Assembly: GCA_964423885.1 (NCBI GenBank)
Contig: CAYRGD010000002.1
Location: 18,128 to 82,127 of the forward strand
Origin: an uncultured Candidatus Saccharibacteria bacterium
Lineage (GTDB): Bacteria; Patescibacteriota; UBA1384; JACPKC01
Length of the DNA stretch: 64,000 nt
Reading direction: 5' to 3'
Each line of letters opens with the position of its first letter. Positions within the stretch are counted from its first letter, which is position 1. The translations under genes were made by a program, and so were the position numbers. Shown here in pieces: positions 3,678 through 37,209 of this stretch. The notes beneath the pieces were generated by a model. That model was not told the origin of the DNA, did not search any database, and worked only from the letters and a program-made list of their open reading frames with translations.

Positions 3678-3825
3678 CTTGCCCTCCAATGCAACTCAAA
3701 CAAAAAAGGCACTCCTGGGGAACGATCCTTCGGCGCCCCAGCTACCCTACCGCAGCGCCCAGGCTGCGCGCAAGCTGGGGATGGCCCGTGATTCAGGGTA
3801 GAATACGGTGGACGAAAGGAGCCCT

Positions 3826-19258: not shown

Positions 19259-19624
19259 ATGGCTTCTGAATTGCAGGAACTAACACGGCGGATCACCGCG
19301 TTCCGTGACGCGCGGGACTGGAAACAGTTCCACAACCCCAAAGACCTAGCGTTATCGTTAGTGCTAGAAGCCGCCGAGGTGATGGAGCACTTCCAGTGGA
19401 AGTCACCGGACGAAATCGCAGACTACGTACAATCAAACAAAGAGGATATTGCCGAGGAGCTGGCTGACACGCTCTACTGGACGCTGCTGCTCGCACACGA
19501 TCTGGATATCGACCTGGCCGACGCTTTTTCGCGCAAGATGGCGAAGAACGATGCAAAGTATCCTGCCGATCAAGCCAAGGGGCGGCACGATAAATATACG
19601 GCGTACCGTCGATCCAAGATTTGA
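19259..19624 (+). CDS. MazG-like all-alpha nucleotide pyrophosphohydrolase
   Basis: 121 aa. EExxE and ELADxLYW motifs of the MazG/NTP-PPase fold (LEAAEVMEHFQW...EELADTLYWTLLLAHDLDIDL). Intermediate GC (~54%). Its stop overlaps the RBS/start region of mod. Confidence 0.7.
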   Translation: MASELQELTRRITAFRDARDWKQFHNPKDLALSLVLEAAEVMEHFQWKSPDEIADYVQSNKEDIAEELADTLYWTLLLAHDLDIDLADAFSRKMAKNDAKYPADQAKGRHDKYTAYRRSKI

Positions 19625-19635
19625 GGAGTCTCAAC

Positions 19636-21537
19636 ATGCAGAACGATGAACTAGGGCATCTGAGCGGCGAGTCTTGGTTGCCACAGCATGAGCTTACTAA
19701 GGAGCTGAAAGAAAAATTCCCAGGAACGTTTTCGGAAAATAAGGTTGATTGCAAAAAGCTCAAGCAAGAGTTGGGTGAGGAGTTTGATGATGCCCCAGAG
19801 CGTTACGGTTTAAGTTGGGCAGGAAAGCAAAACGTTTTTAACGTTATCCAAGAACCAACGACGAAAACACTAAAGGTTGATCGCGATGAATCGGTTGACT
19901 TTGACACAAGTCAGAATCTGTTTATCGAGGGCGATAACCTAGAAGTGCTCAAAGTTTTGCAGCGCTCGTACTACGGCAAAATAAAAATGATTTATATTGA
20001 TCCGCCGTACAATACGGGCAAGGATTTCATCTACTCAGATAAATGGCAACAATCACGTGGGGAGTACGAGCAGGAAGCTGGTATACGAAATGCGGACGGC
20101 AATGTGCATGAAGTAAGTGGCTTGCGGCAAAATACCCGCGACAGCGGTCATTTTCATAGCAACTGGCTCAATATGATGTATCCGCGTCTTTACCTTGCCC
20201 GCAATTTATTGCGACAAGATGGCGTGATCTTCGTCTCGATTGATGATAACGAAGTGCATAATTTGCGCATGATTATGAACGAGATTTTTGGAGAAGAGAA
20301 TTTCATTGACTGTTTGGTTTGGAAGAAACGGTATGGAGGTGGTTCGAAGGAAAAATACTTTGTAACCGTTCATGAATATATTCTGGTTTACGCAAGGGAC
20401 TTAAATAATATCCTTGATATTGAAGTGCCACTGAGCCAAGAGTCCATTGACCGTTATTACACCGAAAAAGACGATCAATTCGAAAAACGGGGCCCTTTTA
20501 GAACCCACCCCTTGGAAGCAACGAGAAGTATGGGAGATCGCCCTAATTTGATTTTTCCAATCAAGGCTCCAGATGGAACAAATATTCTTCCGGAGCGACA
20601 ATGGCTTTGGTCTAAAGAAAGAGTCGCAGAAGCCCAAGATGGGGGTGAGATAAAATTTTATAAGGCTCAAGGTGTTTGGAAAGTTTCCACTAAACAATAC
20701 CTGAAAGATGCTAATGGAAATCTCAGAAATGGGAAAATGCAATCATTAATAGACGGTATATATGGACAGTATGGCACAAATGAGATCATTGAATTAATGC
20801 AAAATGCACAAGTTTTTCCATTTTCAAAACCCACCAAACTAATAGAAGGCTTACTTTCTGCTAGCTCAAGTTCTAACGATATGATATTAGATTTCTTTGC
20901 TGGTTCAGGATCCGCAGCGCATGCTGCCGAGCAATTGAATGCCCGGGACGGCGGTAATCGAAAATGGATTGCAGTACAGTTGGCAGAAGAAGTCGATGAT
21001 ACGAGCGAAGCCAAGAAAGCCGGCTTCAAGAATATTGCCCAACTTTCACGCGAACGAATTCGTCGAGCTGGCAAGAAAATCAGGGGAAATTATAAAGACA
21101 ATATCAAGAAACGAAAAACCCCAATTGATCTTGGATTCAAGGCTTTAAAGCTCGAAGAGACCAACTTTAAGATTTGGGATTCAAGCGTTCGCGACAAGAA
21201 ACAACTTGAGCATCAAATGAAAGCGATGCTGAATGTTATTCGAGACGACGCAGATGAAGGGGATTTGCTGCTTGAATTGATGCTGAAAAGCGGCATTGAG
21301 CCAACAGAAAAACAAGAGAAAGTTGAAACCGAAAGCGGTGAATTTTACCGAATCGGATTGGGAGAGCTTATTATTTGCCTGGCTGACAAAGTCAGTGAAA
21401 AGTTATTTTCTGACATCGTCAACCAAAAACCATCTAAAGTCATATTCTTAGAAAGAGCTTTGCTCCAAAATGATGTGCTTAAATCCAACGTTTTACTTTC
21501 TGCTGAAAAGCTCAACCTAGAAATCAGGATTGTTTAG
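19636..21537 (+). CDS. mod: Type III restriction-modification system methyltransferase (Mod), N6-adenine, beta class
   Basis: IYIDPPYNTG (motif IV DPPY) precedes FFAGSGSAAHAA (motif I FxGxG), the beta-class order. ~630 aa is typical of Mod. GAGGAG RBS before the ATG at 19636. Confidence 0.9.
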   Translation: MQNDELGHLSGESWLPQHELTKELKEKFPGTFSENKVDCKKLKQELGEEFDDAPERYGLSWAGKQNVFNVIQEPTTKTLKVDRDESVDFDTSQNLFIEGDNLEVLKVLQRSYYGKIKMIYIDPPYNTGKDFIYSDKWQQSRGEYEQEAGIRNADGNVHEVSGLRQNTRDSGHFHSNWLNMMYPRLYLARNLLRQDGVIFVSIDDNEVHNLRMIMNEIFGEENFIDCLVWKKRYGGGSKEKYFVTVHEYILVYARDLNNILDIEVPLSQESIDRYYTEKDDQFEKRGPFRTHPLEATRSMGDRPNLIFPIKAPDGTNILPERQWLWSKERVAEAQDGGEIKFYKAQGVWKVSTKQYLKDANGNLRNGKMQSLIDGIYGQYGTNEIIELMQNAQVFPFSKPTKLIEGLLSASSSSNDMILDFFAGSGSAAHAAEQLNARDGGNRKWIAVQLAEEVDDTSEAKKAGFKNIAQLSRERIRRAGKKIRGNYKDNIKKRKTPIDLGFKALKLEETNFKIWDSSVRDKKQLEHQMKAMLNVIRDDADEGDLLLELMLKSGIEPTEKQEKVETESGEFYRIGLGELIICLADKVSEKLFSDIVNQKPSKVIFLERALLQNDVLKSNVLLSAEKLNLEIRIV

Positions 21538-22247
21538 TGCCTGTAAATTATCAACAAAAATTTCTAGATAGTATGGGTGAGGTGGATAAATTGGCATCCA
21601 CGCCCGATCTCATTAGGCAATTTGCCGTGGATGTACTTGTAAAATCTTTGGAGACGCCCGGAATCACCCATTCCGTAGCCAGTGCAATTCGGAACGCAAA
21701 AACTGCGTTGGAAAACATTAGAGATCAATCGATAGCAAATAGATATAGTGCCATCTATTCACAGATGTGCGTATTGGCGTCCTCCGCACTCGAGGTGACA
21801 GTAAAAGAATATTTTGAGAATTTAGCTTTTCATTCTGCCAACTTAAACAAATCTAATCTGAGCGACCTAAAAATTACCCTGAGGGAAGTTGTGGAAAACG
21901 ATCTGAGATTTGGAGGCAAACTCGGAAAGTTAATTCTTGATAAAGACAACTCAATAAATTTTCAGGATCTCGGTTCAATTAAAAGAGTTTTTGAAAAATA
22001 CTTCGAAAGAAAAATAGTTAGATTTGATAGCGAATTGGCGAAGAAGGCAAATTTTTATCTTCAAGCAAGGCATGTACTGGTTCATAAAGGCGGGGTAGTT
22101 GATCAGTCATTCCTGGACTCTAATTCTAAGTATCAATCAAATATCAAGAATTACGCTTTAGGGGAGCGCATTAAGTTAGACGTAACTGATTGGGTGGATA
22201 TTCGGGCAAGTTTTCTTCACATCATAGAAAGTGTGGTGGCAAGATGA
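21537..22247 (+). CDS. hypothetical all-alpha protein embedded between mod and res; candidate HEPN-like ribonuclease (R-x4-H motif RHVLVH near the C-terminus)
   Basis: 236 aa, same low GC as mod/res. GTG start overlaps the mod stop by 1 nt, and its TGA overlaps the res ATG (ATGA). Predicted helical throughout. The only conserved-looking motif is QARHVLVHKGG, which fits the HEPN R[NHQ]xxxH pattern. Confidence 0.6.
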   Translation: MPVNYQQKFLDSMGEVDKLASTPDLIRQFAVDVLVKSLETPGITHSVASAIRNAKTALENIRDQSIANRYSAIYSQMCVLASSALEVTVKEYFENLAFHSANLNKSNLSDLKITLREVVENDLRFGGKLGKLILDKDNSINFQDLGSIKRVFEKYFERKIVRFDSELAKKANFYLQARHVLVHKGGVVDQSFLDSNSKYQSNIKNYALGERIKLDVTDWVDIRASFLHIIESVVAR

Positions 22248-24952
22248 AGCTTCGATTTGATGCCAACCAGAACTATCAACTAGATGCTATTCAATCGGTT
22301 GTCGATTTATTTGAAGGCCAATTACTTCAGAGTGATAATCTTTCTGTAACAAAATCAAAGATATATCGTAGTGATTCGCGACAGACAGCGTTGGTTGAGG
22401 AGACTGCTGCAGCAAATAATCGATCAATCGATGTTGAACAGCTCTACCGAAATACACACAATATTCAAAAGCGGAATAACATTTCTCAGGACTATTGGTT
22501 GCCGGAATGGGATGAAGAGGGTTGGAATCAAGAAAAAATCTTTGAGGTAAAGCGATCATTTGAGAAGCACTTCACGGTCGAAATGGAAACGGGTACCGGA
22601 AAAACGTATGTGTATCTTCGTACAATCCACGAACTCTATAAAACGTATGGTTTCAAAAAATTTATTGTCGTTGTTCCGAGTGTTGCGATCAAAGAGGGGG
22701 TGCTAAAGAACTTAGAAATTACGCGGGAGCACTTTGCTCAACTGTACGGTAATCCTTCGCTCGATTGGTACGAGTGGAATTCAAAAAAGCGAGGCCAGGC
22801 CCGACAATTTGCAACCAACGATAGCTTGCAAATTATGGTTATCAATATCGATTCGTTTACGCGAGCGGAGAACATTATTAATCAGCAATCGGATTACGGC
22901 ACGCCGATTCAGTTTATTACAGCCACCAATCCAATTGTGATTGTCGATGAACCGCAGAACATGGAGACCGATACGCGGAAGGCTGCAATTGAATCACTCA
23001 ATCCGCTTTGTACACTTCGCTATTCGGCAACCCATAAAAATGAATATAACCTGCTGTATAAGCTCGATCCCGTGAAGGCGTACGATCTTGGCTTGGTGAA
23101 GAAGGTTGAGGTTGACTCAGTTGTTTCGGAGAATGCATACAATACTGCGTACATCAACGTAAAAAAGATTGCCAGGAAGGGTAAAAGTGCCTTGATTGCA
23201 CATGTCGAGGTAGATAAAGATGACGCAGCTGGTTTGCAACGTAAAGAGCTGAAGCTCGAAGTCGAAGATGACTTAGCTGAGATTACCGGACGCCAGATTT
23301 ACGAAGACTATGTTGTTACGAGGATTAGCTTGGAAGAAAAGTGCATCGAGTTTTCGAATGGTAAAGAATTTTGTATTGGCGAGATGCGAGAAGATCTGCG
23401 CGATGAAGTGGTGAAGTTCCAGATTGAACGAACGATAGAAAACCATTTTGAGAAAGAGAAGCGATTGCAACCGCTAGGAATTAAGGTGCTCTCCCTATTC
23501 TTTCTTGATCGAGTGGCAAATTACCGCATCCATTCAGCAGATGGCAACCAAAAAGGTAAGTTCGCAATGTGGTTTGAGGAAGCGTACGAGAGGATCAGAG
23601 CAAAACCGCAATTTGCAGGTGTGCTAGAGCACTCGGCTGATCAAGTGCACAATGGGTATTTCTCAAAGGATAGACGCGGAAATGTTAGTGACACATCTGG
23701 CACAGCCAGGGCTGATGACGATACTTATGGGCTCATTATGAAGGACAAGGAACGTTTGTTGAGTTTGAACGAGCCACTGCGATTCATTTTTAGTCATTCG
23801 GCGTTGCGCGAGGGTTGGGATAATCCAAACGTCTTTCAAATCTGTACGCTCAATGAGACGCACGAGGATATAAAAAAGCGTCAAGAAATCGGTCGAGGCA
23901 TGCGTTTGCCAGTTAATGCTAATGGCGAGCGCGTGTTTGATGAAAACGTCAATATCCTGACCGTTATTGCAAATGAAAGCTATGAAGACTTTGCATGCCA
24001 TCTTCAGGCTGAGATTCAGGATGAAACAGGTGTCGTTTTTGCGAGTAATCGAATTAAGGATAAGAGAAAGCGGCGGACTGCGGCATTGAAAAAGAACTAT
24101 CAGCTTGATGAGAATTTTCAAGAACTATGGAGCCGAATCGACAAAAAAACTCGCTACCATGTGACGTTCGATTCTCAGGACTTAGTACGTAAAACGTGCG
24201 AAATGCTGAGCGACGTAATTATTCGAAAAGCAAAGGTAGTAAGTACGAAGGCATTGCTTAACATGGACGAAGGCGGCATTGCGACCGAGGTAAGATCAAC
24301 TGCGGTACGGCGAGATGACGGTACGCAAAAACAACTTCCTATTCCGGATGTATTGGGGAAGATTCAGCAACATACAAAGTTAACGCGAGCGACGATATTT
24401 TCGATATTAGATCGGTCTGGAATGGTAGAAAAAATTTTGGTGAATCCTCAGCAAGTTATTGACGAAGTGACTAGAGTGATTAATCAAGTAATGAAAGCAT
24501 TGATGGTCGACGGTATTAAATATGAGCGCTTAGATGGTGAAGTATGGGAGCTGCAACGCTTTAAGGATGAGGAACTAGAAAGTTATTTAGAAAATCTTGT
24601 TGAGGTGCAAAAACAAGAAAAGACGCTATATGACCATATCCTTGTAGATTCAGACGTCGAGCGCTCTTTCGCTCATGAGTGTGAAGCTCGTGATGATGTG
24701 AGGTTTTACTTCAAGTTGCCGAGTTGGTTCAAAATCGATACGCCACTTGGAAGCTACAACCCCGATTGGGCGCTAGTGTTTGAGAATGATGAACGAATAT
24801 ATTTTGTCGCCGAAACGAAGGGCACTAGTGATTCATCTCGTATTTCTGAGATTGAGCGATTGAAAATTAAGAGCGGTCGGAAGCACTTTGAAGTGCTGGA
24901 CGGCGTTGAATTCAAGGCGCCAGTTGAGAATCTGTCTCAAGTAGTAGATTGA
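22244..24952 (+). CDS. res: Type III restriction enzyme Res subunit (SF2 helicase plus C-terminal PD-(D/E)xK nuclease)
   Basis: Helicase motif I-like (TGTGKT), motif II (IVIDEPQN), and a C-terminal PDW...VAETKG nuclease motif. ~900 aa. ATGA-coupled to the upstream gene. Confidence 0.9.
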   Translation: MKLRFDANQNYQLDAIQSVVDLFEGQLLQSDNLSVTKSKIYRSDSRQTALVEETAAANNRSIDVEQLYRNTHNIQKRNNISQDYWLPEWDEEGWNQEKIFEVKRSFEKHFTVEMETGTGKTYVYLRTIHELYKTYGFKKFIVVVPSVAIKEGVLKNLEITREHFAQLYGNPSLDWYEWNSKKRGQARQFATNDSLQIMVINIDSFTRAENIINQQSDYGTPIQFITATNPIVIVDEPQNMETDTRKAAIESLNPLCTLRYSATHKNEYNLLYKLDPVKAYDLGLVKKVEVDSVVSENAYNTAYINVKKIARKGKSALIAHVEVDKDDAAGLQRKELKLEVEDDLAEITGRQIYEDYVVTRISLEEKCIEFSNGKEFCIGEMREDLRDEVVKFQIERTIENHFEKEKRLQPLGIKVLSLFFLDRVANYRIHSADGNQKGKFAMWFEEAYERIRAKPQFAGVLEHSADQVHNGYFSKDRRGNVSDTSGTARADDDTYGLIMKDKERLLSLNEPLRFIFSHSALREGWDNPNVFQICTLNETHEDIKKRQEIGRGMRLPVNANGERVFDENVNILTVIANESYEDFACHLQAEIQDETGVVFASNRIKDKRKRRTAALKKNYQLDENFQELWSRIDKKTRYHVTFDSQDLVRKTCEMLSDVIIRKAKVVSTKALLNMDEGGIATEVRSTAVRRDDGTQKQLPIPDVLGKIQQHTKLTRATIFSILDRSGMVEKILVNPQQVIDEVTRVINQVMKALMVDGIKYERLDGEVWELQRFKDEELESYLENLVEVQKQEKTLYDHILVDSDVERSFAHECEARDDVRFYFKLPSWFKIDTPLGSYNPDWALVFENDERIYFVAETKGTSDSSRISEIERLKIKSGRKHFEVLDGVEFKAPVENLSQVVD

Positions 24953-26343: not shown

Positions 26344-27996
26344 ATGAAAGGGGCACTCCGCATGCACGCGCTTCCCGCCGGCCGTAAATGGTCGATCCTC
26401 CTGGTATTGAGCCTTGCGCTCGCGATTATCATCCTGGATACGACGCTCTTGAACGTCTCGCTCGCGGCGATCATCCGCGACTTGAGCACCGACATCCAGG
26501 GCATCCAGTGGGTGATCACGGGCTACTCGCTGGTGCTGGCCGCACTCACGATCACGGGAGGCCGCCTGGGCGACTTGTTCGGCCGCCGCCGGATGTTCGT
26601 CGTGGGGGCGGTGCTGTTCGCGATCGGTTCGTTCGTGACGTCGGTCAGCACCACCGTGCCGCAGATGATTATCGGCGAGGCGTTGATCGAAGGCATGGGC
26701 GCGGCGCTCATGATGCCGGCCACGGCGTCGATCCTCGTGTCGATTTTCCACGGCCGCGAGCGTGCGATCGGGTTCGGGATCTGGGGCGCGGTCGCCGGTT
26801 CGTCGGCGGCGCTCGGCCCGATCGTGGGCGGGTACCTGGCCACCAACTACAGCTGGCGCTGGGGATTCCGGATCAACATCCTGGTCGCAGCCTTGCTCGT
26901 GCTCGGCAGCCTCATCATTCCCGAAGCCCGCGATACCGAAGAAAAGCCGCGTCTCGACGTGGTCGGGATCCTGACCTCGGGCCTGGGATTGCTGCTCTTC
27001 GTGTTCGGCGTCATCGAGTCGTCGACCTACGGCTGGTGGACCGCTAAGAAACTCTTTACGATCGGCGGCACCGTGATCGGGTTCGGCAACCTGTCGATCG
27101 TGCCCACGGCCATGCTCTTCGGCGTGGTGCTCCTGCTGCTCTTCGTACTGTGGGAACAGGAAGTCGAGCGGTCGGGCGGGACGCCGCTCGTGTCGATGCG
27201 GTTGTTCGGTAACCGCCAATTCACCTCGGGCGCGCTCGTGACCGCCATCCTGTCGCTCGGCATGTCGGGCATCATCTTTTCGATCCCGGTCTTTCTGCAG
27301 GCGGTCCGTAAGCTCGACGCGCTCCATACCGGCTACAGCCTGCTGCCGCTCTCGCTGACCTTGCTCGTGGTCTCGCCGCTCGGGGCCGCGCTGTCGGGCA
27401 AGCTGCGGCCGAAATTGCTTATCCAGCTTGGGCTGCTCGCCAACGTCGGGGCGGCACTGGTGCTCCGCCACGCGTTCCGGGTCGAGGCGGTCGCGGCCGA
27501 TTTCGCACCGGGCCTGGCCCTGTTTGGGTTCGGGATGGGGCTCGTGATGTCACAGATCAACAACCTGACGCTGTCGGCGGTGTCGCCGCAGCAGGCCGGC
27601 GAGGCGTCGGGCGTCAACAACACGCTCCGCCAGATGGGGACGTCGTTCGGGTCGGCGATCATCGGGACAGTATTGCTGACCACCCTGTCGTCGCACCTGG
27701 TGAGCGGCGTCCAGGCGAGCCCGGTCATCCCGGACGCGTCCAAGGCGCAGATCGCGGCCGCGGTGTCGACCCAGAGCAGCAACGTCGAGTTCGGCGGCGG
27801 CGCCCAGTTGCCGGCCGGTACCCCGCCGGCGATCGGCCAGGAACTCGCGGCTATCGGCGCGGCGGCCACGGTCGCGGCCAACAAGCAGGCGATGCTCTAC
27901 GGGATCTGGTTCGCCATCTTGGGATTCCTGGTGTCGTTCACGATCCCGAATACCAAAAAGATCGAAACGGAACAGTCGTTGGCCGGCGGCCACTAG
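26344..27996 (+). CDS. MFS transporter, DHA2 (EmrB/QacA, 14-TMS) type
   Basis: 14 hydrophobic segments with the G-R-L-x-D-x-x-G-R-R motif (GGRLGDLFGRRRMF) after TM2. The track ORF has a long non-coding-looking 5' extension; the start is taken at MKGAL. Confidence 0.85.
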   Translation: MKGALRMHALPAGRKWSILLVLSLALAIIILDTTLLNVSLAAIIRDLSTDIQGIQWVITGYSLVLAALTITGGRLGDLFGRRRMFVVGAVLFAIGSFVTSVSTTVPQMIIGEALIEGMGAALMMPATASILVSIFHGRERAIGFGIWGAVAGSSAALGPIVGGYLATNYSWRWGFRINILVAALLVLGSLIIPEARDTEEKPRLDVVGILTSGLGLLLFVFGVIESSTYGWWTAKKLFTIGGTVIGFGNLSIVPTAMLFGVVLLLLFVLWEQEVERSGGTPLVSMRLFGNRQFTSGALVTAILSLGMSGIIFSIPVFLQAVRKLDALHTGYSLLPLSLTLLVVSPLGAALSGKLRPKLLIQLGLLANVGAALVLRHAFRVEAVAADFAPGLALFGFGMGLVMSQINNLTLSAVSPQQAGEASGVNNTLRQMGTSFGSAIIGTVLLTTLSSHLVSGVQASPVIPDASKAQIAAAVSTQSSNVEFGGGAQLPAGTPPAIGQELAAIGAAATVAANKQAMLYGIWFAILGFLVSFTIPNTKKIETEQSLAGGH

Positions 27997-28700
27997 TCCT
28001 TGAAGCGGAACGAGACGGCCGCGGCGTCAAAGACCGCCGGGCCGTCGACGGTAGCGGGATCGTAAGTGAGCGCCAGACGGTAGAACTTGCCTTGGTGGCT
28101 CAATTCGGTTTCGATCGTTTCCCTGGTGCCGTCGGCGTACCGTTGCCGGGTGCCACGTTCGCCGTCGACCGTGATATCGGCCTGGTCGAGCAGGTCGGCA
28201 TGATCGGTTGCGGTTGCTGCGGCCGTGACCGTAACGAGGAACGTCGCGTTCGTGCGGCTCGCTTCGAGGCGGATGGGTTCGGTGCTGCCGGAATGCTGGT
28301 TGAGCTTCACGCTCCACGAGCCTGCGAGCGAGGCGGCGAAGTAATTGGTACTTAGCGACGCGGTGCCGGTGCCCAGCGATGATGACGGTTTCGTCGTGTC
28401 CGTGGCCGTGCTGTCATTGGCGTCCGCCGGATCGTCCGATGCAGCCGGAAGGCCCGATTGCCCGCCAATCGCCGCCTCGATCCGGTCGCCCAGGAAATCA
28501 CCGATCACCGGCAGGTACTTCAGAGGTTGGATGACAAGCGAGAGGATCCAGAGCACGGCCGCCAGTCCGAGCGTCGAACCGACACCGGTGAGCAGGCCCT
28601 GCCAGACCGGCCGTTTCCACGAGGTAAGAATCCTGTTCTGCCGCTCGACGGCCCTGGTAAGCCGGGCAGTCTCGGATTCCGGCGGCATGATCACTCCCAT
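27993..28700 (-). CDS. hypothetical membrane-anchored extracytoplasmic protein, last gene of the ABC-transporter operon
   Basis: One N-terminal TM helix then a ~170-aa Ser/Thr/Ala-rich exported domain. Start overlaps the permease stop by 10 bp. I do not recognise the domain. Confidence 0.5.
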   Translation of the reverse strand: MGVIMPPESETARLTRAVERQNRILTSWKRPVWQGLLTGVGSTLGLAAVLWILSLVIQPLKYLPVIGDFLGDRIEAAIGGQSGLPAASDDPADANDSTATDTTKPSSSLGTGTASLSTNYFAASLAGSWSVKLNQHSGSTEPIRLEASRTNATFLVTVTAAATATDHADLLDQADITVDGERGTRQRYADGTRETIETELSHQGKFYRLALTYDPATVDGPAVFDAAAVSFRFKD

Positions 28701-29893
28701 CGCAGCGCCTTGATGGGATCCAGCTTAGCGGCCCGGTAGGCCGGCGCGATCCCGAACACGAGCCCTACGATCACGCCGACACTCGCGGCGAGCGCTACGG
28801 CTGCCGGCGTGACCGCAGGCGACAGGGTCGAGAAGCGGGTCACGAGCATGGCCGCGCCGTAGGCGAGCCCGACCGCGACGGCCGATCCCAGAAGCGACAA
28901 AATCACCGATTCCACCAGGAACTGGAGCAGGATCGCGCCAGTGGTGGCGCCGACCGCTTTGCGGATCCCGATCTCTTTCGTGCGTTCCGTGACCGACACC
29001 AGCATGATGTTCATGATCCCGACGCCGGCCACCAGGAGCGAGATGGCGGCGATGCCGGTGATGGCGGCCGTGAGCAGTGTCAGCACCGTGTCGACTACGC
29101 CCACCAGGTCGTCGGACGACAGCACGCTCACCTCGTCGTCGTGGTGGCGGGCAAGGAGCGCGGACGTCACCGTTTCTTTGTACGTCTTGGTATCTACGCC
29201 GTCTTTCAAGCGGACGATCATGCGGAAGATCCGGTCGCTGCCGGCCAGGTCGTTGCTCGTGCCGTGCGGGATAAGTGTCATGGCGGCCAGGTCGCCGCTC
29301 ACGAGCGAGTTGCTTTCGCTCACCTTCGTGACGCCGATCACCGAGAAATCCTCCTTGCCGACGGTCACTTGTTTGCCGACCGGGTCGGCGTCGCCGAAGA
29401 GCGCGGTCGCGACCGTCGGCCCCAAGACGATTACCCGATCACGGCGCGTGTCCTCGGCGGGCGTGAAGAACCGCCCGCTGCCAAGCTCGATCACGCCATA
29501 GAGGTCAAGGAAATTCGGGGTGACGCCCAGAAGCAGGGCCGACGGGGCGGGCGTCGTACCGGCGCGGACCGTGCCGCCCACCAACGACATCTGGGCGACG
29601 TCGCGTACGCCCGGCAGAGCGGCGATATCGGCCGCGTCGGCCGGCTCGAGTACGTCGCCGGACAGCGCGCTGGTGTTGGGTGCGCCGCCCGACAGCTTGC
29701 CGGGAATGACGGTAAGCACGTTCGAGCCCAGGCTCGTGATCTCGTGGCTCACGTCGCGCCGCAGGCCCTCGCCCACGGCCATGAACATCACCACCGACCC
29801 GACACCGATGATAATGCCGAGCATCGTCAGGAACGACCGGGCCTTGCTGCCAAGGATCGAGCCCACGGCCATCCGTACGGTTTCGAAGATCAT
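28691..29893 (-). CDS. ABC transporter permease, MacB/FtsX family
   Basis: TM1, a large extracytoplasmic domain (MacB_PCD-like), then three C-terminal TMs with the FtsX signature (ERTKEIGIRKAVGAT). Confidence 0.85.
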   Translation of the reverse strand: MIFETVRMAVGSILGSKARSFLTMLGIIIGVGSVVMFMAVGEGLRRDVSHEITSLGSNVLTVIPGKLSGGAPNTSALSGDVLEPADAADIAALPGVRDVAQMSLVGGTVRAGTTPAPSALLLGVTPNFLDLYGVIELGSGRFFTPAEDTRRDRVIVLGPTVATALFGDADPVGKQVTVGKEDFSVIGVTKVSESNSLVSGDLAAMTLIPHGTSNDLAGSDRIFRMIVRLKDGVDTKTYKETVTSALLARHHDDEVSVLSSDDLVGVVDTVLTLLTAAITGIAAISLLVAGVGIMNIMLVSVTERTKEIGIRKAVGATTGAILLQFLVESVILSLLGSAVAVGLAYGAAMLVTRFSTLSPAVTPAAVALAASVGVIVGLVFGIAPAYRAAKLDPIKALRWE

Positions 29894-30576
29894 CGCAGCC
29901 TCCCGTCCTTCATCTCGAGCACTTGGTGGGCGAGCGCGGCCACGCCGTGGTCGTGGGTCACGATCACGATCGTCTGGCCGTCGCGGTTCAAGTCCTGCAA
30001 GAGCTTCAAGACCAATGCGCCGTTGTCCGAATCCAGGTTGCCAGTCGGTTCGTCGGCCAGCAGTACCTTCGGCGAGTTGATGAGTGATCGCGCGATCGCG
30101 ACGCGTTGCTGTTCGCCGCCGGACAGCTGGTTGGGGCGGTGGTGGAGCCGGTGGGCGAGGCCGACGGTTTTCAACAGGTAGCGGGCCCGCTCGCGCCGGT
30201 TCGGCAGGCGGCTGTAGATGGCCGGCATCGCGACGTTGTCGAGCGCGCTCTGGCGCGGCAGCAAATTAAATTGCTGGAAGATGAACCCGAGCTTTTCGCG
30301 CCGCAGCCGCGCCCGGTCGTCGTCACTCTGCAAGTCCTCGGTGGGTGCGCCGTCGAGCTTGTACTGGCCGCTGCTTGGGCGGTCTAAGAGGCCGATCAGG
30401 TTAAGTACCGTACTCTTGCCCGACCCGCTCGGCCCGATGACCGCAGTGATCGAGCCCGCCGGGATCGCGAACGAGATCCCGCGCACGGCATGCGTTTTAG
30501 CGTTGCCCTCGCCGTAGGTCTTGCTCACGTCGTCGAACGTGATCACGGGCGGAGCCGGCGGCAGGGGGCGGGTCAT
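29890..30576 (-). CDS. ABC transporter ATP-binding protein (MacB/LolD-type)
   Basis: Walker A GPSGSGKST, signature LSGGEQQRVAIARSL, Walker B LLADEPTGNLD. Start at MTRPLPP; the ATG overlaps the ogt stop (ATGA). The track ORF carries a 40-codon non-conserved extension. Confidence 0.9.
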   Translation of the reverse strand: MTRPLPPAPPVITFDDVSKTYGEGNAKTHAVRGISFAIPAGSITAVIGPSGSGKSTVLNLIGLLDRPSSGQYKLDGAPTEDLQSDDDRARLRREKLGFIFQQFNLLPRQSALDNVAMPAIYSRLPNRRERARYLLKTVGLAHRLHHRPNQLSGGEQQRVAIARSLINSPKVLLADEPTGNLDSDNGALVLKLLQDLNRDGQTIVIVTHDHGVAALAHQVLEMKDGRLR

Positions 30577-30881
30577 CGCGCTACCGTCCGGTCGGCGCCG
30601 ATCCGCCAACCCTCGGCCGTCAACAAGGCGATCTTGGCGTCGGTACCGCCGTTGAAGCCGCCCAGGCGTCGGCTGGCCGCGACCACCCGGTGGCACGGCA
30701 CTGCGTCGGGATCGCCGGCAGCGGTCACAAAGGACTTGGGATTACCGCGCATGATCGCGCCGACTGCCCGGGCCGCCTTGGGGTTGCCGGCAGCAGCCGC
30801 CACCTCACCGTAGGTCATCACCTGGCCGCTCGGGATCGAACGGACCACGGCGTACACCTGTTCCTTAAACGCACTGTTCAT
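30573..30881 (-). CDS. ogt: methylated-DNA--protein-cysteine methyltransferase (DNA-binding/active-site domain only)
   Basis: ~100 aa with MTYGEVAAAAG...PCHRVV (PCHR active-site cysteine motif) and a helix-turn-helix. GGAGG RBS. ATGA overlaps at both ends. Confidence 0.8.
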   Translation of the reverse strand: MNSAFKEQVYAVVRSIPSGQVMTYGEVAAAAGNPKAARAVGAIMRGNPKSFVTAAGDPDAVPCHRVVAASRRLGGFNGGTDAKIALLTAEGWRIGADRTVAR

Positions 30882-31387
30882 GCTGCCTCCGGGACTGCGG
30901 CCGCGGCCGCTTTCGGTTCGGTTGATTTGAGTACCACGATCCGCTTGGGCGTTACTTTGACGATCTCGTCGCGGCTGATCACCCGTTCGGGCCCGAACAG
31001 CTTGTTGACGTGGAGCTTGGCGACCCGTTCCAAGTCGGTATCCACGACTACGTCGGCCACGGTGCCGAGCACGTCGCCGTCCTCGCTTTCCACCTTCTTG
31101 CCCTGCCACCGGTCGCGCTGCGCGTATACCGCTTTGAACGGTTGGACGTCGTCAGGAGACACGAGCACGTCGGCGGTGCGGATCACGATCCCGCGCTCTT
31201 CATACCCCACCACGTCGCGCGCCGATAGCGCCCGCCGCGCCGCGAACCAGCCGGCAGGTTTCACCCAAAAGCCCACGACCTCGCCGGTACGTGGGTGGAT
31301 GAGTGTCCCGTCAATCATCCCGACGGCGGATTCGGTATCCAACGTCGCTACGGGAATGCCCTGTAAGTGGCTGGCTTCGATGAGCAT
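30878..31387 (-). CDS. PRC-barrel domain protein (two PRC-like repeats), first gene of the operon
   Basis: Two ~75-aa repeats with the G.V.D...D..G.V.G.V pattern of PRC barrels. Preceded by TGGTAGCAT-N6-ATG (leaderless-type promoter). Confidence 0.65.
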   Translation of the reverse strand: MLIEASHLQGIPVATLDTESAVGMIDGTLIHPRTGEVVGFWVKPAGWFAARRALSARDVVGYEERGIVIRTADVLVSPDDVQPFKAVYAQRDRWQGKKVESEDGDVLGTVADVVVDTDLERVAKLHVNKLFGPERVISRDEIVKVTPKRIVVLKSTEPKAAAAAVPEAA

Positions 31388-31470
31388 GTATCCATGCTAC
31401 CACCACCGGCCCGCTCGACATACTCCGGCAGGTGCTGCGATACTGGAGCCAACCAAGGAGGTACCGCTTC

Positions 31471-34044
31471 ATGACGCACCGACGACTACTTGCGCTGGTA
31501 TTGCTCGTATCCCTCCAAGCACTAGGTCTCCAGATCACAGCCCCGAGCCGTGACGACACTGCTACGGCCGCCGCCCAATCCGCCTTCGCCAACCTCCCCC
31601 TCGCCTTCGAACCCAACCTCGGCCAGGCCGAGGATTCGGTGGATTTTGTAGTCCATCACGGCCAAGCCGTGACCGCCTTCTCCAGTACCGGTACCACGAC
31701 AAGTGTGGGCGGCACGCAGGTGACGATGTCGCTTACCGGTGCTGCGGAACAGCAATTCGCCGGTACCGACGAACTCCCGAGCAAGACGAACTACTTTCTG
31801 GGGAACGACCAGTCGAAGTGGCAATCGGATATCCCAAACTACGGCAAGCTGCTGGCCAAGGACGTGTATCCCGGCATCGACCTCGCTTACTACGGGACGA
31901 ACTCACAGCTGGAACACGACTTCATCGTGGCCCCGGGCGTCGATTACAAGCAGATCGCCTTCGGCTTTGCCGGGCAGGACGATCTGTCGCTCGATGACAA
32001 CGGGAACCTTGTCCTCAAAGCGGGCGACGAGATGCTGACCCTCAACGCCCCGGTCACGTACCAGACCGACACCAATTCGAAACACACCATCCCGAGCAGC
32101 TTCGAGCTCAACGGCGGCACCGTCACGGTCGCGGTGGCTGACGCGTATGATCCCGCGAAGCCACTGATCATCGACCCGGTGTTGTCGCTTGTGTATTCGA
32201 CGTATTTGGGAGGGAACGGGGATGATCTTGGCAATGCTATCGCAGTCGATCCTTCTGGAAACACGTATGCGATTGGTCAGACCACCTCGGCCGACTTTCC
32301 GACCAGTTCACCATTTCAAGGTAGTAAGGGCGCGGGGATTGACGTTTATATTACAAAACTCAATCCGACCGGTTCTTCCCTCGTGTATGCAACATATTTG
32401 GGCGGGAGTGGGCATGACATTGGTCGTGGGATCGCGGTGGATATTTCAGGAAACGCCTACGTCACAGGGCAGACCGGCTCGACCAATTTCCCAACCAGTT
32501 CGCCGTTCCAGGCGGCAAATGCAGGCGCGACCAATGTCTTTGTTGCTAAGCTCAATGCGGCTGGTTCAGCGCTGACGTACTCAACCTATCTCGGCGGTAG
32601 TGCTAATGATCTTGGATACAGTATTGCTATCGATGCGGGTGGCAGCGCATATATAACTGGGTCTGCTGGGTCGGCCAACTTTCCAACTGCCTCGCCGTTT
32701 CAAGGAAGTAGGGTGGGTGGCCCAGATGCCTTCGTGACGAAATTGAACGCGGCTGGTTCAGCGCTTGTCTATTCGACATATTTAGGCGGGTCGTTAACTG
32801 ATCAAGGAGAGAGGATCGCAGTAGATAGTGGCGGGAATGCTTATGTAGCCGGCTGGTCGGATAGTAGCAATTTCCCCACAGCGTCACCCATTCAGGCAAG
32901 CAAGGCGGGGAACGATGATGCGATTGTTTTCAAATTCAATCCGTCCGGCTCATCGCTCGTCTATTCAACGTATTTGGGCGGTACGGCGTTTGATCATGGG
33001 TATGGCTTGGCAATTGACAGCTCGGGCAGCGCATATGTAGTCGGCAGAACTGCGTCGACGAACTTCCCAACCGTATCGCCGTTTCAGAGCACGAATGCTG
33101 GCGGCGCAGATGACATTTTCATCACGAAGGTAAATGCTGCTGGCTCAGTCTGGGCATATTCAACGTACCTTGGTGGAAGTGGGGATGACTGGGGGCGTGG
33201 GGTCGACCTTGATACGTCAGGTAACTTCTATGTAACCGGCTGGACTTCGTCGACAAACTTCCCAACGGCGTCTGCGCTTCAGAATACGAATGGCGGCGGT
33301 AGCTATGATGTGTTCGTCGCGAAATTCAATGCGGCTGGTTCGTCGCTCGGCTACTCAACCTACCTCGGTGGCAGTGGAGATGAGCTTGGATATGGGATCG
33401 CGCTTGGTTTAAATGGCAACGCAAACGTCATCGGCCACACTGCGTCAACCAATTTTCCGACCAGCTTGCCGTATCAATCCACGAATAACGGTGGGGCATA
33501 CGATGCCTTCGTGTTCCAACTCACCGAACACAATGTGGATCTTGAAGCCCGTGTGAACCCGACCCTCACCTTCACCGTCGGGAGTACGAGTTGCGCGCTC
33601 GGCGCACTCTCGACCACCCAGACCCGGCAGTGCACGTACACAATGTCGGCAGCCACGAACGGGCAATCCGGGTACGGTATTTCGTACCTGCCAGCTGCGA
33701 CGTTAACCAGTGGCGGGAATACGATTACAGCGCTAGGTTCTCCGACTGCCAGTACGCTCAATACCGAACAGTTCGGGTTGAACTTGGCTGCGAACACCGC
33801 TGCTGGCTCGCATACGGCAACGGACTTCGGGGCGGCTCCGAGCGGCGGCGTTGGTGCTGCGGCAGCCAACTACGCTACGGCCAACTCGTTCAAGTTCGCC
33901 ACTGCCGGTGAGCAAGTCGCCTCGTCGGCCGGTCCGTCGCTTGCGACCACGTACACCGTGTCGACCATTGCCAACATCGGGAACACGACGGAGGCCGGGG
34001 TATATAGCACGATGGTGACGTTCAATGTGGTGGCAGGGTACTAG
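31471..34044 (+). CDS. secreted beta-propeller-repeat (SBBP-type) protein, ~858 aa
   Basis: Signal peptide (MTHRRLLALVLLVSLQALG), then ~10 tandem ~50-aa repeats of YSTYLGGSGDDxGxGIAVDxSGNAYVTGxTxSxNFPTxSPFQ. AAGGAGG RBS before the ATG at 31471. Confidence 0.75.
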   Translation: MTHRRLLALVLLVSLQALGLQITAPSRDDTATAAAQSAFANLPLAFEPNLGQAEDSVDFVVHHGQAVTAFSSTGTTTSVGGTQVTMSLTGAAEQQFAGTDELPSKTNYFLGNDQSKWQSDIPNYGKLLAKDVYPGIDLAYYGTNSQLEHDFIVAPGVDYKQIAFGFAGQDDLSLDDNGNLVLKAGDEMLTLNAPVTYQTDTNSKHTIPSSFELNGGTVTVAVADAYDPAKPLIIDPVLSLVYSTYLGGNGDDLGNAIAVDPSGNTYAIGQTTSADFPTSSPFQGSKGAGIDVYITKLNPTGSSLVYATYLGGSGHDIGRGIAVDISGNAYVTGQTGSTNFPTSSPFQAANAGATNVFVAKLNAAGSALTYSTYLGGSANDLGYSIAIDAGGSAYITGSAGSANFPTASPFQGSRVGGPDAFVTKLNAAGSALVYSTYLGGSLTDQGERIAVDSGGNAYVAGWSDSSNFPTASPIQASKAGNDDAIVFKFNPSGSSLVYSTYLGGTAFDHGYGLAIDSSGSAYVVGRTASTNFPTVSPFQSTNAGGADDIFITKVNAAGSVWAYSTYLGGSGDDWGRGVDLDTSGNFYVTGWTSSTNFPTASALQNTNGGGSYDVFVAKFNAAGSSLGYSTYLGGSGDELGYGIALGLNGNANVIGHTASTNFPTSLPYQSTNNGGAYDAFVFQLTEHNVDLEARVNPTLTFTVGSTSCALGALSTTQTRQCTYTMSAATNGQSGYGISYLPAATLTSGGNTITALGSPTASTLNTEQFGLNLAANTAAGSHTATDFGAAPSGGVGAAAANYATANSFKFATAGEQVASSAGPSLATTYTVSTIANIGNTTEAGVYSTMVTFNVVAGY
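32190..33480 (+). repeat. tandem ~150-bp coding repeats (beta-propeller blades) within the SBBP gene
   Basis: Repeated YSTYLGG...NFPT...KLN..GS units are visible in the translation. The DNA copies are divergent but periodic. Confidence 0.6.
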
Positions 34045-35374: not shown

Positions 35375-35938
35375 TTAGCCGTTGACGCGTTCGACGTATT
35401 CGCCGGTAACGGTGCTGACGCGTACGGTTTCGCCCTGCTTGATGAAGAGCGGAACGTTCACTTCGAGCCCGGTTTCCAAGGTGGCCGGCTTCAATGTGCC
35501 GGACTGGGTGTCGCCCTTGAAGCCCGGTTCGGTGTAGGTGATCACGAGGTCGACCTTGGCGGGCAGTTCCACGGCCAGGATCTGGCTGTTGTAGAGCATG
35601 AGGTTGAGTTCCAAGCCTTCTTTGAGGTACTTCGCGTCGCTGCCGAGCTTCGCGAGGCCGATCTCATGCTGCTCGAACGACTCGGCTTCCATGAAGGTGG
35701 CGTTCGTGCCGTCGGCGTAGAGGAACTGGCCCTTGCGACGGGCGATGTCGGCTTCGTCGAACTGTTCGCTGCCCTTGAAGGTGCGTTCGTAGACGGCGCC
35801 GGTGAGCAGGTTGCGGATCTTGGTGCGCAGAACCGCGCCGGCCCGGCCGGTTTTGGAATGTTCGTAGGACAGTACCTGGTGCGGTACGGCGTCGAGCTCG
35901 AAGAACGTACCTGTTTTCAGGTCGGTGATCGAAAGCAT
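35375..35938 (-). CDS. efp: elongation factor P
   Basis: 187 aa. KGSEQ loop region and three-domain EF-P pattern (KPATLETG...VPLFI). Confidence 0.95.
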   Translation of the reverse strand: MLSITDLKTGTFFELDAVPHQVLSYEHSKTGRAGAVLRTKIRNLLTGAVYERTFKGSEQFDEADIARRKGQFLYADGTNATFMEAESFEQHEIGLAKLGSDAKYLKEGLELNLMLYNSQILAVELPAKVDLVITYTEPGFKGDTQSGTLKPATLETGLEVNVPLFIKQGETVRVSTVTGEYVERVNG

Positions 35939-35944
35939 CGGGAA

Positions 35945-36160
35945 TTACCGGGTGGCGTAGGGGACGAGCGCCAGGAACCGGCCGCGCTTGACCGCTTCGG
36001 CCAGGAGTCGCTGGTGGCGGGCGCAGGTGCCGGTGTCCTTGGCCGTGCGGATCTTGCTCCACGTGCCCATGTGGCGGCGGAGCAGGCCGGCGTCCTTATA
36101 GTCGATCCATTCGACGTGCTTGCGGCAGAACTGGCAGGTCCGTTTGCGTTGCTGAGCCAT
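35945..36160 (-). CDS. rpsR: 30S ribosomal protein S18
   Basis: 71 aa, CQFCRKHVEWIDYKD...RFLALVPY. Confidence 0.95.
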   Translation of the reverse strand: MAQQRKRTCQFCRKHVEWIDYKDAGLLRRHMGTWSKIRTAKDTGTCARHQRLLAEAVKRGRFLALVPYATR

Positions 36161-36172
36161 AAAAGTCCTTCG

Positions 36173-36661
36173 TTAGAACGGGATGTCGTCGAGGTTGATT
36201 TCGTCCGGTACGGTGGCCGGGGCCTCGGCTGGGTTGGTAGCTCCCTCTTTCGCGGCGGTTTTCTTCGGTGCCATGCTCGGCATGGCCGGGGCGTCCATCG
36301 CGCCGCCCTCGCCAGACTGGTCGCCGTGCCGGCTCGGGCCGGTGGCGCTCAGCTGGTCGGCGATGACTTCGGTGGAGTAGCGCTTGATGCCGTCCTGGCC
36401 TTCCCACTGGCGGGTGCGCAGCCGGCCGACCACCAGCACCTTGCGGCCCTTGTACAGGATCTGGCCGCAGATTTCGGCCAACTTGCCCCAGGCGACGATG
36501 TTATGGAATTCGGTCTCTTCCTGTTGCTGGCCGTCTTTGTTGGTCCAGCGGCGGTTGGTGGCGATCGAGAACGAAGCGACGGTCGCGCCGCTCGTAGTCG
36601 AGCGCAGTTCCGGATCTTTCGTCAGGTTGCCGAGAATGATCGCCTGGTTGAAATCCGCCAT
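36173..36661 (-). CDS. ssb: single-stranded DNA-binding protein
   Basis: OB-fold N-terminus (MADFNQAIILGNLTKDPELR...FHNIVAWGKLAE), Gly/Pro-rich linker and acidic C-terminal tip DDIPF. Confidence 0.95.
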   Translation of the reverse strand: MADFNQAIILGNLTKDPELRSTTSGATVASFSIATNRRWTNKDGQQQEETEFHNIVAWGKLAEICGQILYKGRKVLVVGRLRTRQWEGQDGIKRYSTEVIADQLSATGPSRHGDQSGEGGAMDAPAMPSMAPKKTAAKEGATNPAEAPATVPDEINLDDIPF

Positions 36662-36676
36662 ACCGCCTCCTTGGTA

Positions 36677-37141
36677 TTACTGCTCGAGCGGGGCGTCGGC
36701 CGGGCCGGCGTCGTCGCTCAAGAGCTTGTCGAGTTGTTCGTCGAGCTTCTTCGACCGTTCCTTGTCGTCGGCGGCCGGGGCTGCGGGAGCGGTTTCACCG
36801 CCGAGCTCCTTGGCTTCTTTGAGTTCCTCGCCTTCGTCGAGCGAGGCGGACAGCTTGGCGACCGGCAGCGAGACCAGCAGATGCCGCAACAGGTCGGACA
36901 TCAGACGGAATTCCTTGGTGAGCTGGGCGGTGGCGGCGGGGTCGAGGGACAGCTGGTAGGCGGTGTAGAACCCGGCCGTTTCTTTGTTGATCGGGTATGC
37001 GAAACTGCGCCGCCCCAGGCTGTGCTGGGCAACAATCGTGCCGCCGGCGCGCGCAATCGCCTGCTCGACGGCAGGAAGCTGTTCGTCTCGGGTGATCGTG
37101 GTCAGTTCGTAGTCTCGTACGCTCACGGTGCTCCTTGGACT
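36677..37141 (-). CDS. rpsF: 30S ribosomal protein S6 (GTG start) with acidic C-terminal extension
   Basis: VRDYELTTIT...GGTIVAQHSLGRRSFAYPI. AAGGAG RBS followed by GTG. The track ORF has a 22-codon non-conserved extension. Confidence 0.85.
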   Translation of the reverse strand, partial: SPRSTVSVRDYELTTITRDEQLPAVEQAIARAGGTIVAQHSLGRRSFAYPINKETAGFYTAYQLSLDPAATAQLTKEFRLMSDLLRHLLVSLPVAKLSASLDEGEELKEAKELGGETAPAAPAADDKERSKKLDEQLDKLLSDDAGPADAPLEQ

Positions 37142-37209
37142 TGCATATCGCCGCACGCTCACAGGTGCAGTACCCGCGACTCTACCAGGTGGCGCCTCGG
37201 TTGGCAAGC

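Follow-up and report, generated by a model that had tools for sequence, protein, structure and literature searches.

A conserved five-gene cluster of Patescibacteria combining a MacB-type ABC system, a candidate extracytoplasmic partner and an Ogt gene

A 64,000-nucleotide stretch of DNA from an uncultured Candidatus Saccharibacteria bacterium (assembly GCA_964423885.1, contig CAYRGD010000002.1, positions 18,128 to 82,127), hereafter the window, carries five closely packed genes for a PRC-barrel protein, an O6-alkylguanine-DNA alkyltransferase (Ogt), an ATP-binding cassette (ABC) ATPase, a MacB-type permease and a DUF5665 protein, referred to as P5. An initial annotation of the window, made from the sequence alone, had described five co-oriented open reading frames (ORFs) on the minus strand, called PRC, Ogt, MacB-type ATPase and FtsX permease domains among their products, and suggested that they may couple the export of an alkylating toxin to DNA repair. 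All five ORFs were found at their coordinates as one tightly coupled gene string (Table 1), and the domain calls agree with Pfam and NCBIfam; the suggested coupling was not supported. The reading favoured here, at slightly better than even confidence, is that of a composite operon in which a MacB-type machine works with P5 as its partner, Ogt is a co-expressed passenger, and the PRC-barrel protein is an older neighbour.

Table 1. Positions of the operon genes, the promoter element and neighbouring features in the window.
Feature	Position	Strand	Remarks
Gene 1, PRC-barrel	31387..30878	minus	169 aa; PF05239 42 bits
Gene 2, Ogt-like	30881..30573	minus	102 aa; PF01035 101 bits, TIGR00589 82 bits
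Gene 3, ABC ATPase	30576..29890	minus	228 aa; top NCBIfam matches MacB and LolD
Gene 4, MacB-type permease	29893..28691	minus	400 aa; MacB_PCD and FtsX
Gene 5 (P5)	28688 (or 28700)..27993	minus	231 aa (235 aa from the 28700 ATG)
Extended -10 element TGGTAGCAT (TGn + TAGCAT)	31394..31402	minus	6 nt upstream of the PRC ATG
DHA2/EmrB-type efflux gene	26368..27996	plus	converges on the operon
DUF7948 and SBBP beta-propeller gene	31432..34044	plus	divergent from the operon
ychF-rpsF-ssb-rpsR-efp block	38313..35375		common to window and relatives
MazG-like gene	19259..19624	plus	precedes methylase; low-GC island
N6/N4 DNA methylase	19621..21537	plus	low-GC island
HEPN-like protein	21537..22247	plus	236 aa; low-GC island
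Res helicase	22190..24952	plus	920 aa, RE_endonuc domain; low-GC island

Junctions and promoter of the gene string

Four start/stop overlaps had been proposed for the five genes. Three of them are ATGA overlaps that can be read directly in the sequence, namely gcATGAac at the PRC/Ogt junction, cgATGAcc at the Ogt/ABC junction and cgATGAtc at the ABC/FtsX junction; the fourth, a 10-bp overlap between the permease gene and P5, probably results from a mis-chosen start codon. The overlapping ATG at 28700 is present, but it arises from the codons of the permease C-terminus (CGA TGG GAG TGA). In three relatives (loci L088, L091 and L093) no equivalent ATG exists and P5 begins 1-2 nt past the permease stop; the window ATG that corresponds to this start, 28688, sits 5 nt after GGGAG (GGGAG-N5-ATG); and P0001, the copy of this protein that the database took from NCBI, has the 231-aa form that begins there. 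On these three grounds, the junction is most probably a 2-nt gap with P5 starting at 28688, and it is tight with either start; in one further relative (L001), the overlapping ATG is the only usable start of P5. GGAGG or GGGAG(G) stands ahead of three of the four internal genes, including the Ogt and permease starts. Overlaps of 4 bp are not rare in the window, where a crude ORF map filtered by GC content at third codon positions gave at least four other candidates; those of the operon are taken to exceed chance because three overlaps and the -10 box are kept in relatives that span 47-68% GC. No second paralogue of Ogt, PRC, P5 or MacB was found within the window, and scans of the window for Rfam families and tRNAs gave no match.

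The initial annotation had further postulated a leaderless-type promoter, which gains comparative support. The motif TGGTAGCAT-N6-ATG was located at 31402..31385 as described, and TAnnnT lies exactly 6 nt before the PRC ATG in all eight aligned relatives, preceded by TGn in seven of them, with the flanking bases diverged; inspection of the sequence found no Shine-Dalgarno (SD) motif ahead of the PRC ATG. An extended -10 at this distance leads to the prediction that transcription starts at the A of the ATG or immediately beside it and yields a leaderless mRNA. Because the -10 is conserved and the SD is missing, the transcription unit would begin at the PRC gene and not at the upstream efp gene. 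A generic promoter and terminator scan did not flag TGGTAGCAT, so the case for the operon promoter is wholly comparative, and the terminator matches of the scan were at chance level. As such, TGnTAnnnT-N6-ATG offers a clean comparative example of a putatively leaderless operon in Patescibacteria.

About 14 nt upstream of the -10, four relatives (L083, L087, L091 and L093) have a conserved GTGTCTAG(G/A)GGA element. The window has TGTCGAG at that place (around 31415..31420), which corresponds in reverse complement to TCGACA, a -35-like sequence attributed by the scan to the divergent SBBP gene. This upstream element may serve as an operator or as a shared -35.

The five encoded proteins

Genes 3 and 4 are, judged by their family matches and domain layout, a MacB-kind Type VII ABC system whose nucleotide-binding domain (NBD) is encoded by a gene of its own. 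Gene 3 matches PF00005 at 120 bits; its best NCBIfam scores, 239 bits for the MacB NBD and 229 bits for LolD, stay under the equivalog cut-offs. Its translation shows every catalytic motif, with GPSGSGKST as Walker A, LSGGEQQRV as signature, LLADEPT as Walker B and VTHD as H-loop. Gene 4 matches PF12704 at 146 bits (profile positions 1-205 of 207) and PF02687 at 70.6 bits; its layout comprises a first transmembrane (TM) helix, an extracytoplasmic Porter/Sabre domain (MacB_PCD) and TM helices 2-4, which belong to the FtsX domain. Full-length phmmer matches of the permease are MacB (5gko, 6e-60; 5lil, 1e-57; 5nik) and the MacB-like protein of S. pneumoniae (5xu1, 8e-44), whereas solved FtsX is matched over the TM helices only (3e-6). 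The model of E. coli-type MacB (NF007826) gives 239 and 209 bits vs a cut-off of 966, NBD and permease being separate genes here. Two other identities for the pair were considered and rejected, namely FtsEX (FtsX_actino 48 bits vs 250 and FtsE 205 vs 265, this FtsE score of gene 3 also lying below its MacB and LolD scores) and LolCDE (lolCE 27 bits vs 362 and LolD 229 vs 308).

MacB-type transporters are thought to act on extracytoplasmic or membrane substrates and not on cytoplasmic ones, through mechanotransmission rather than transmembrane transport (PMC5985334). In the MacAB system, the N-terminal TM helix and the cytoplasmic region of MacA are required for stimulation of the MacB ATPase, and every characterised Type VII system has a dedicated extracytoplasmic partner. 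Two MacB-type systems of organisms whose envelopes are of Gram-positive type, Spr0693-0694-0695 of S. pneumoniae (5xu1) and YknXYZ of B. subtilis, combine, as here, a LolD/MacB-type ATPase, separate or fused, with a four-TM Porter/Sabre permease. Unlike these two systems, the present operon has no MacA/HlyD-type adaptor gene in or near it, which leaves the putatively bitopic DUF5665 and PsbP-like protein as the sole candidate partner, and it additionally carries the PRC-barrel and Ogt genes. The lack of a MacA-like adaptor, already suspected from the sequence, is borne out by the domain searches: no HlyD/membrane fusion protein (MFP) domain occurs in the five genes or their neighbours, and no such adaptor was found among the called genes of related loci. 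Within the same superfamily, FtsEX-EnvC/PcsB, LolCDE-LolA and YbbAP-TesA are each described as one ABC/permease pair serving one specific extracytoplasmic protein; the PsbP-like fold of P5 differs from EnvC (a coiled coil plus LytM), from LolA and from TesA.

P5 is made up of a cytoplasmic basic helix, the Gly-rich TM helix of DUF5665, a linker rich in Ser, Thr and Pro, and an ectodomain predicted to be PsbP-like, and the positive-inside rule suggests that it is bitopic with its N-terminus inside and its C-terminus outside. The match of P5 to DUF5665 (PF18910) is marginal, at 28.5 bits vs 27, and all 14 aligned members of its family match (best E 1.8e-10); PsbP_2 is matched by eight of the 14 (best E 4.3e-5), the window protein itself having no Pfam PsbP match. 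In the AlphaFold2 (AF2) model, residues 111-235 exceed 90 in the predicted local distance difference test (pLDDT), and Foldseek finds PsbP with E 5e-5 and probability 1.0, though with a target-normalised TM-score of only 0.45-0.55; the ectodomain also matches Tsi3, DUF1795 chaperones, LpqN and DcrB. Compared with PsbP/Mog1-like proteins as a whole (LpqN, DcrB, Tsi3, Eag/DUF1795 and PsbP/CyanoP), P5 probably has the ectodomain fold in common (E 5e-5 to 2e-2, target-normalised TM-score 0.4-0.55), with an identity to the solved structures of only 8-18%. It differs from them in its anchor, which is the N-terminal DUF5665 TM helix instead of a lipid anchor or signal peptide, and, as regards LpqN, which is reported to be an accessory of MmpL3/MmpL11, in being linked to a MacB-type ABC system instead of a resistance-nodulation-division (RND) pump.

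The most conserved part of P5 is its TM segment, with a mean pairwise identity of 52% vs 28% for the ectodomain and with W33, G35, G39, G41 and G45 invariant. The family is small: an exhaustive HMMER search of 1.8 billion representatives gave 22 clusters, a word-indexed search with P5 returned only the protein itself and one relative, and an exact look-up of the 231-aa form returned no contig. Identity of P5 to its relatives is 26-50%, and its gene lies downstream of the permease gene in every relative where the region is present, at a junction that varies from -10 to +11 nt and reaches +562 nt in L089, where a NUDIX gene intervenes. The suggestion that the last gene encodes an accessory subunit is hence plausible, given its constant place after the permease, its conserved TM helix and the PsbP-like ectodomain that structure prediction gave for it. 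Ten further proteins of 82-129 aa (P0011, P0013 and P0016-P0023) have the DUF5665 helix region alone, with no PsbP-like domain.

Gene 2 is most likely a genuine O6-alkylguanine-DNA alkyltransferase and is predicted from its sequence to be active. It matches PF01035 at 101.2 bits vs 27 and TIGR00589 at 82.4 bits vs 46.4, and it aligns by HMMER with residues 96-178 of human MGMT (1eh6), retaining the equivalents of Y114, R128, N137, C145, H146 and E172; among 19 aligned sequences, Y24, R38, C63, R65 and E90 are invariant, and N47 and H64 nearly so. Since all DNA-repair residues are retained, nothing points to a new function. With 102 aa and a Pfam domain that starts at residue 4, the protein is without the N-terminal domain of full-length Ogt, Ada-C and MGMT, and within the Ogt equivalog NF007626 it matches the C-terminal part only, at positions 88-168 out of 171 (66.8 bits vs a cut-off of 192). 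Such single-domain MGMTs with the acceptor cysteine are widespread: 1484 database clusters match at E <= 1e-10, and of the 120 listed the majority have a length of 84-120 aa. Both motifs could be located in 118 of these 120 relatives, and PCHRV is present in gene 2 and in 117 of the 118, with PCLRV instead in P0045. What sets the present subfamily apart is a 9-residue insertion, KSF(L/V)xxxxDPxA, which the 16 closest clusters carry after the Asn hinge and before PCHR, so that the spacing from ARAVG to PCHR is 20 residues (19 in one cluster) vs the usual 11-12.

Gene 2 thus has the complete C-terminal catalytic and DNA-binding domain in common with Ogt/MGMT and with the single-domain MGMTs of Patescibacteria, and it differs from the latter in the 9-residue insertion and in lying within a transporter operon and not in a repair context. 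Alkyltransferase-like (ATL) proteins have Trp or Ala in place of the acceptor cysteine (PWHRV or PAHRV), and they bind damage but do not transfer the alkyl group. Atl1 and YbaZ of E. coli (3gva) are, like gene 2, single MGMT-like domains of about 100-130 aa; an ATL identity was nevertheless rejected for gene 2, in which the acceptor cysteine is present and, in the alignment, invariant. Its match to Atl1 is weak and limited to residues 5-49 (2.5e-5).

Gene 1 encodes a cytoplasmic tandem PRC barrel, an older neighbour of the transporter pair, which may be an adaptor. The PF05239 match (42.1 bits vs a cut-off of 21.2) concerns its second barrel, and the AF2 model, with a mean pLDDT of 83, has two beta-barrels. 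In the PDB, Foldseek matches it best to chains of 8qzo, the archaeal CdpB1/CdpB2 entry (E 2e-9, TM-score 0.61-0.68), and also to MTH1859 and the reaction centre (RC) H subunit; at the sequence level, gene 1 matched no solved structure and no NCBIfam family. The PRC-barrel fold is common to gene 1, archaeal CdpB1/CdpB2 and bacterial YlmC/YmxH, and both barrels of gene 1 superpose on chains of 8qzo. Unlike CdpB1/CdpB2, gene 1 fuses both barrels in one bacterial polypeptide, and its genomic partners are efp and the ABC system. In archaea, CdpB1 and CdpB2 bind SepF and organise the FtsZ ring, and the CdpB type is functionally defined by SepF binding, midcell localisation and strict co-occurrence with FtsZ (preprints). 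The modelled CdpB-like architecture keeps open a link of gene 1 to division. Homologues of the PRC-barrel protein, at 47-68% identity, are always found at the head of the same cluster.

Conservation of the cluster and its interpretation

Linkage of the genes is not unique to the source genome, the outcome that the initial annotation had named as refuting: PRC-Ogt-ABC-FtsX-(DUF5665) was seen again on eight or more distinct contigs. The five-gene order is intact in the window/L086, L082, L088, L091/92 and L093, and it is interrupted by one insertion in L089/90, where a gene for a NudE-like NUDIX hydrolase (L089 9207..9758, L090 3603..4154) precedes the DUF5665 gene; L083, L084/85, L087, L094 and L001 are cut by contig ends and agree as far as they extend. 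Two of these loci, L087 and L088, were added by a metagenome scan with a narrow PRC alignment. The three closest Ogt homologues on long contigs all lie within the same cluster. The first three junctions are 4-bp overlaps almost throughout, the exceptions being L089, with an overlap of 1 bp, and L083, with one of 7 bp. Because the relatives range over 47-68% GC and their permeases share 50-66% identity with that of the window, the linkage is a property of a clade and not of a few strains. A DNA-repair theme suggested by the NUDIX insertion of L089 was rejected, the enzyme being NudE-like (by a weak match) and not MutT-like. The nearest permease relatives in species-representative genomes come from metagenome-assembled genomes of Candidatus Saccharibacteria at about 40% identity, and the PRC relatives are labelled Patescibacteria group or Candidatus Berkelbacteria; with the ychF-efp block common to the window and these relatives, this suggests a high-GC member of the Patescibacteria as the source.

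Outside this clade, the composition of the cluster changes. The nearest outgroups, the low-GC Saccharibacteria loci L002 and L005, have efp-PRC-ABC-permease with neither Ogt nor P5, and in L002 a 180-aa multi-TM protein and a 344-aa protein without a family match are encoded between the PRC and ABC genes (3408..5104). As a negative control, a permease scan of genome contigs supplied 80 MacB-type loci (relatives at <=42% identity, with neither the source genome nor any Ogt-bearing clade member among them); Ogt occurred in none of the 80 within 6 kb on either side of the permease gene, or up to the contig end, and P5 was likewise seen in none and PRC in two. The distant single-domain MGMTs of other Patescibacteria stand in other contexts, and two of the three checked adjoin a uracil-DNA glycosylase (UDG) gene. 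These two cases (L095 5001..5938 and L099 1452..2323) consist of an 89-aa single-domain MGMT followed by the UDG gene, a recurrent small repair pair, with a CsoR-type repressor and a copper P-type ATPase encoded downstream.

According to the composite-operon reading, the five genes would form a single constitutive, leaderless and translationally coupled operon that is inherited across a Saccharibacteria-like clade of Patescibacteria. A dimer of the gene 3 ATPase would drive the four-helix permease, with its Porter/Sabre ectodomain, by Type VII mechanotransmission, so that the permease acts outside the cytoplasmic membrane of a presumably monoderm cell. P5 would take the place of the MacA-like adaptor as extracytoplasmic partner: its Gly-rich DUF5665 TM helix may pack on the permease helices, a contact that parallels the need of MacB for the N-terminal TM helix and cytoplasmic region of MacA, and its PsbP/LpqN/DcrB-like ectodomain, held on a flexible linker, may bind or hand over an envelope lipid, a lipoprotein or a peptide. 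The substrate role of the ectodomain is suggested by the LpqN-MmpL3/11 precedent together with the rule of one partner per Type VII system. Ogt, a suicide alkyltransferase, would have entered a pre-existing efp-PRC-ABC-FtsX array in the clade ancestor and would be kept at the locus for steady co-expression, not for a pathway common with the transporter. It is read as a passenger because it is absent from L002, L005 and the 80 MacB-type loci, because its distant single-domain relatives lie elsewhere, because the array tolerates unrelated insertions (L002, L089/90), and because its catalytic and DNA-binding residues are fully retained.

Several observations weigh against this reading. Throughout the clade, Ogt lies between the PRC and ABC genes and its 4-bp overlaps are conserved, and at 61-79% identity it is as conserved as the ATPase; the clade-specific loop by its active site and the conserved linkage would also fit a recruited function. 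As only two outgroup loci without Ogt are at hand, its absence there may reflect a loss instead of a gain in the clade. The P5 family is seen only in the Ogt-bearing clade, so the link between P5 and the permease goes back to one evolutionary lineage.

The opposite view of Ogt takes up the toxin-export proposal of the initial annotation and treats the operon as a module that protects the cell from alkylating or membrane-active toxins, of which actinobacterial hosts may be one source. In such a module, the transporter (perhaps with the DHA2 pump) would lower exposure and Ogt would repair the DNA damage, or else Ogt would be an alkylation sensor that modulates the ATPase. Such a functional coupling would account for the clade-wide retention of the linkage and of the ATGA overlaps flanking Ogt, for the presence of all close Ogt homologues with an examined context in the cluster, for the subfamily-specific insertion, and for the DHA2 pump gene that converges on the operon in both the window and L001. 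It is nonetheless quite unlikely: all of this support stems from one lineage and therefore from a single evolutionary event, whereas the absence of Ogt from the orthologous array of the outgroups and from the control loci, the position of its relatives elsewhere in other Patescibacteria and the insertion of other unrelated genes into the same array speak for independence, as does the retention of the repair residues. Moreover, a pump-plus-repair logic for a DNA-alkylating toxin is mechanistically weak because, on current evidence, MacB-type machines do not move cytoplasmic substrates (PMC5985334). Less probable still, and indeed very unlikely, is that the PRC tandem barrel, the insertion-bearing Ogt-like protein or both are subunits or regulators of an as yet undescribed, Patescibacteria-specific Type VII machine with a DUF5665/PsbP-like partner, for instance with the former as a CdpB-like adaptor to a division or host-contact apparatus and the alkyl-accepting Ogt as an irreversible switch for alkylation stress.

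Two further explanations agree with the composite-operon reading that Ogt is no functional part and differ from it over the remaining genes. On one of them, PRC-ABC-FtsX-P5 is an FtsEX-like machine for division or envelope remodelling, in which the PRC-barrel protein ties the ATPase to the division apparatus and P5 controls a wall or surface activity. The CdpB1/CdpB2 matches of gene 1, proteins linked to SepF and FtsZ in archaea, point this way, as do the adjacency of PRC, ABC and FtsX, which predates Ogt and P5 in that L002 and L005 have it, and the fact that FtsEX is itself of Type VII and is paired with an extracytoplasmic protein. The permease, however, has a MacB-type Porter/Sabre domain and scores far under the cut-offs of all FtsX models, with its match to solved FtsX confined to the TM helices; the PRC gene always follows efp and ribosomal genes, so that its adjacency may be plain synteny; two unrelated genes split it from the ABC gene in L002; and no division genes are nearby. 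This explanation is accordingly held to be unlikely. Improbable as well is pure synteny, by which only the ATPase and the permease cooperate, P5 is an independent surface protein, and the PRC, Ogt and P5 genes are frozen neighbours in the compact, rarely rearranged housekeeping block ychF-rpsF-ssb-rpsR-efp. The block is indeed syntenic from ychF to the permease gene across distant relatives, and P5 has a variable junction, evolves fast and is absent from the outgroups. Yet a conserved promoter stands directly before the PRC gene, the overlaps join the first four genes, if not more, into a single translation-coupled unit, P5 stays after the permease in every lineage even past a gene insertion, and it is the TM helix of P5 and not its ectodomain that is conserved, which is unusual for a simple anchor.

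None of the domains involved is new, and the large family to which the ABC/permease pair belongs has it as an ordinary member. In the searchable literature, no description was found of the conserved five-gene combination, of a DUF5665-PsbP_2 protein as a constant neighbour of a MacB-type permease, or of comparative leaderless evidence for this operon; the main text of a Saccharibacteria transposon-sequencing (Tn-seq) paper does not mention the operon genes. The target on which a Type VII ABC system pushes outside the membrane is its defining trait; the characterised systems differ in their outside partners (MacA, LolA, EnvC and TesA), and a TM-anchored PsbP-like partner of a MacB-type system, if true, would add a new partner class. 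The envelope biology and host attachment of Patescibacteria are poorly understood and most of their membrane proteins are unannotated; DUF5665 gains a testable genomic context. The Ogt case is cautionary, in that linkage within a clade, even with overlapping codons, counts as a single event and is no proof of a common pathway.

Neighbouring loci

The DHA2/EmrB-type gene of the major facilitator superfamily (MFS) ends toward the operon with a stop codon that overlaps the P5 stop by 4 bp, which therefore leaves no room for a terminator between the two units; the same convergent arrangement of the MFS gene and P5 is found in L001. On the other side, enolase and the divergent SBBP beta-propeller gene separate the ychF-efp block from the operon in the window. 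This gene encodes a DUF7948 and SBBP protein of 870-880 aa and has counterparts in L091 (371..3010) and L092 (170..2809); it is absent from the operon-divergent position in other relatives, where efp or enolase is found instead. Its true start is probably the ATG at 31471 and not the GTG at 31432, because the latter precedes the predicted -10 of the gene.

Further away, positions 19259..24952 of the plus strand form a low-GC island (41-43% vs about 65%) that carries a type III restriction-modification-like set of genes (Table 1) and was probably acquired horizontally.

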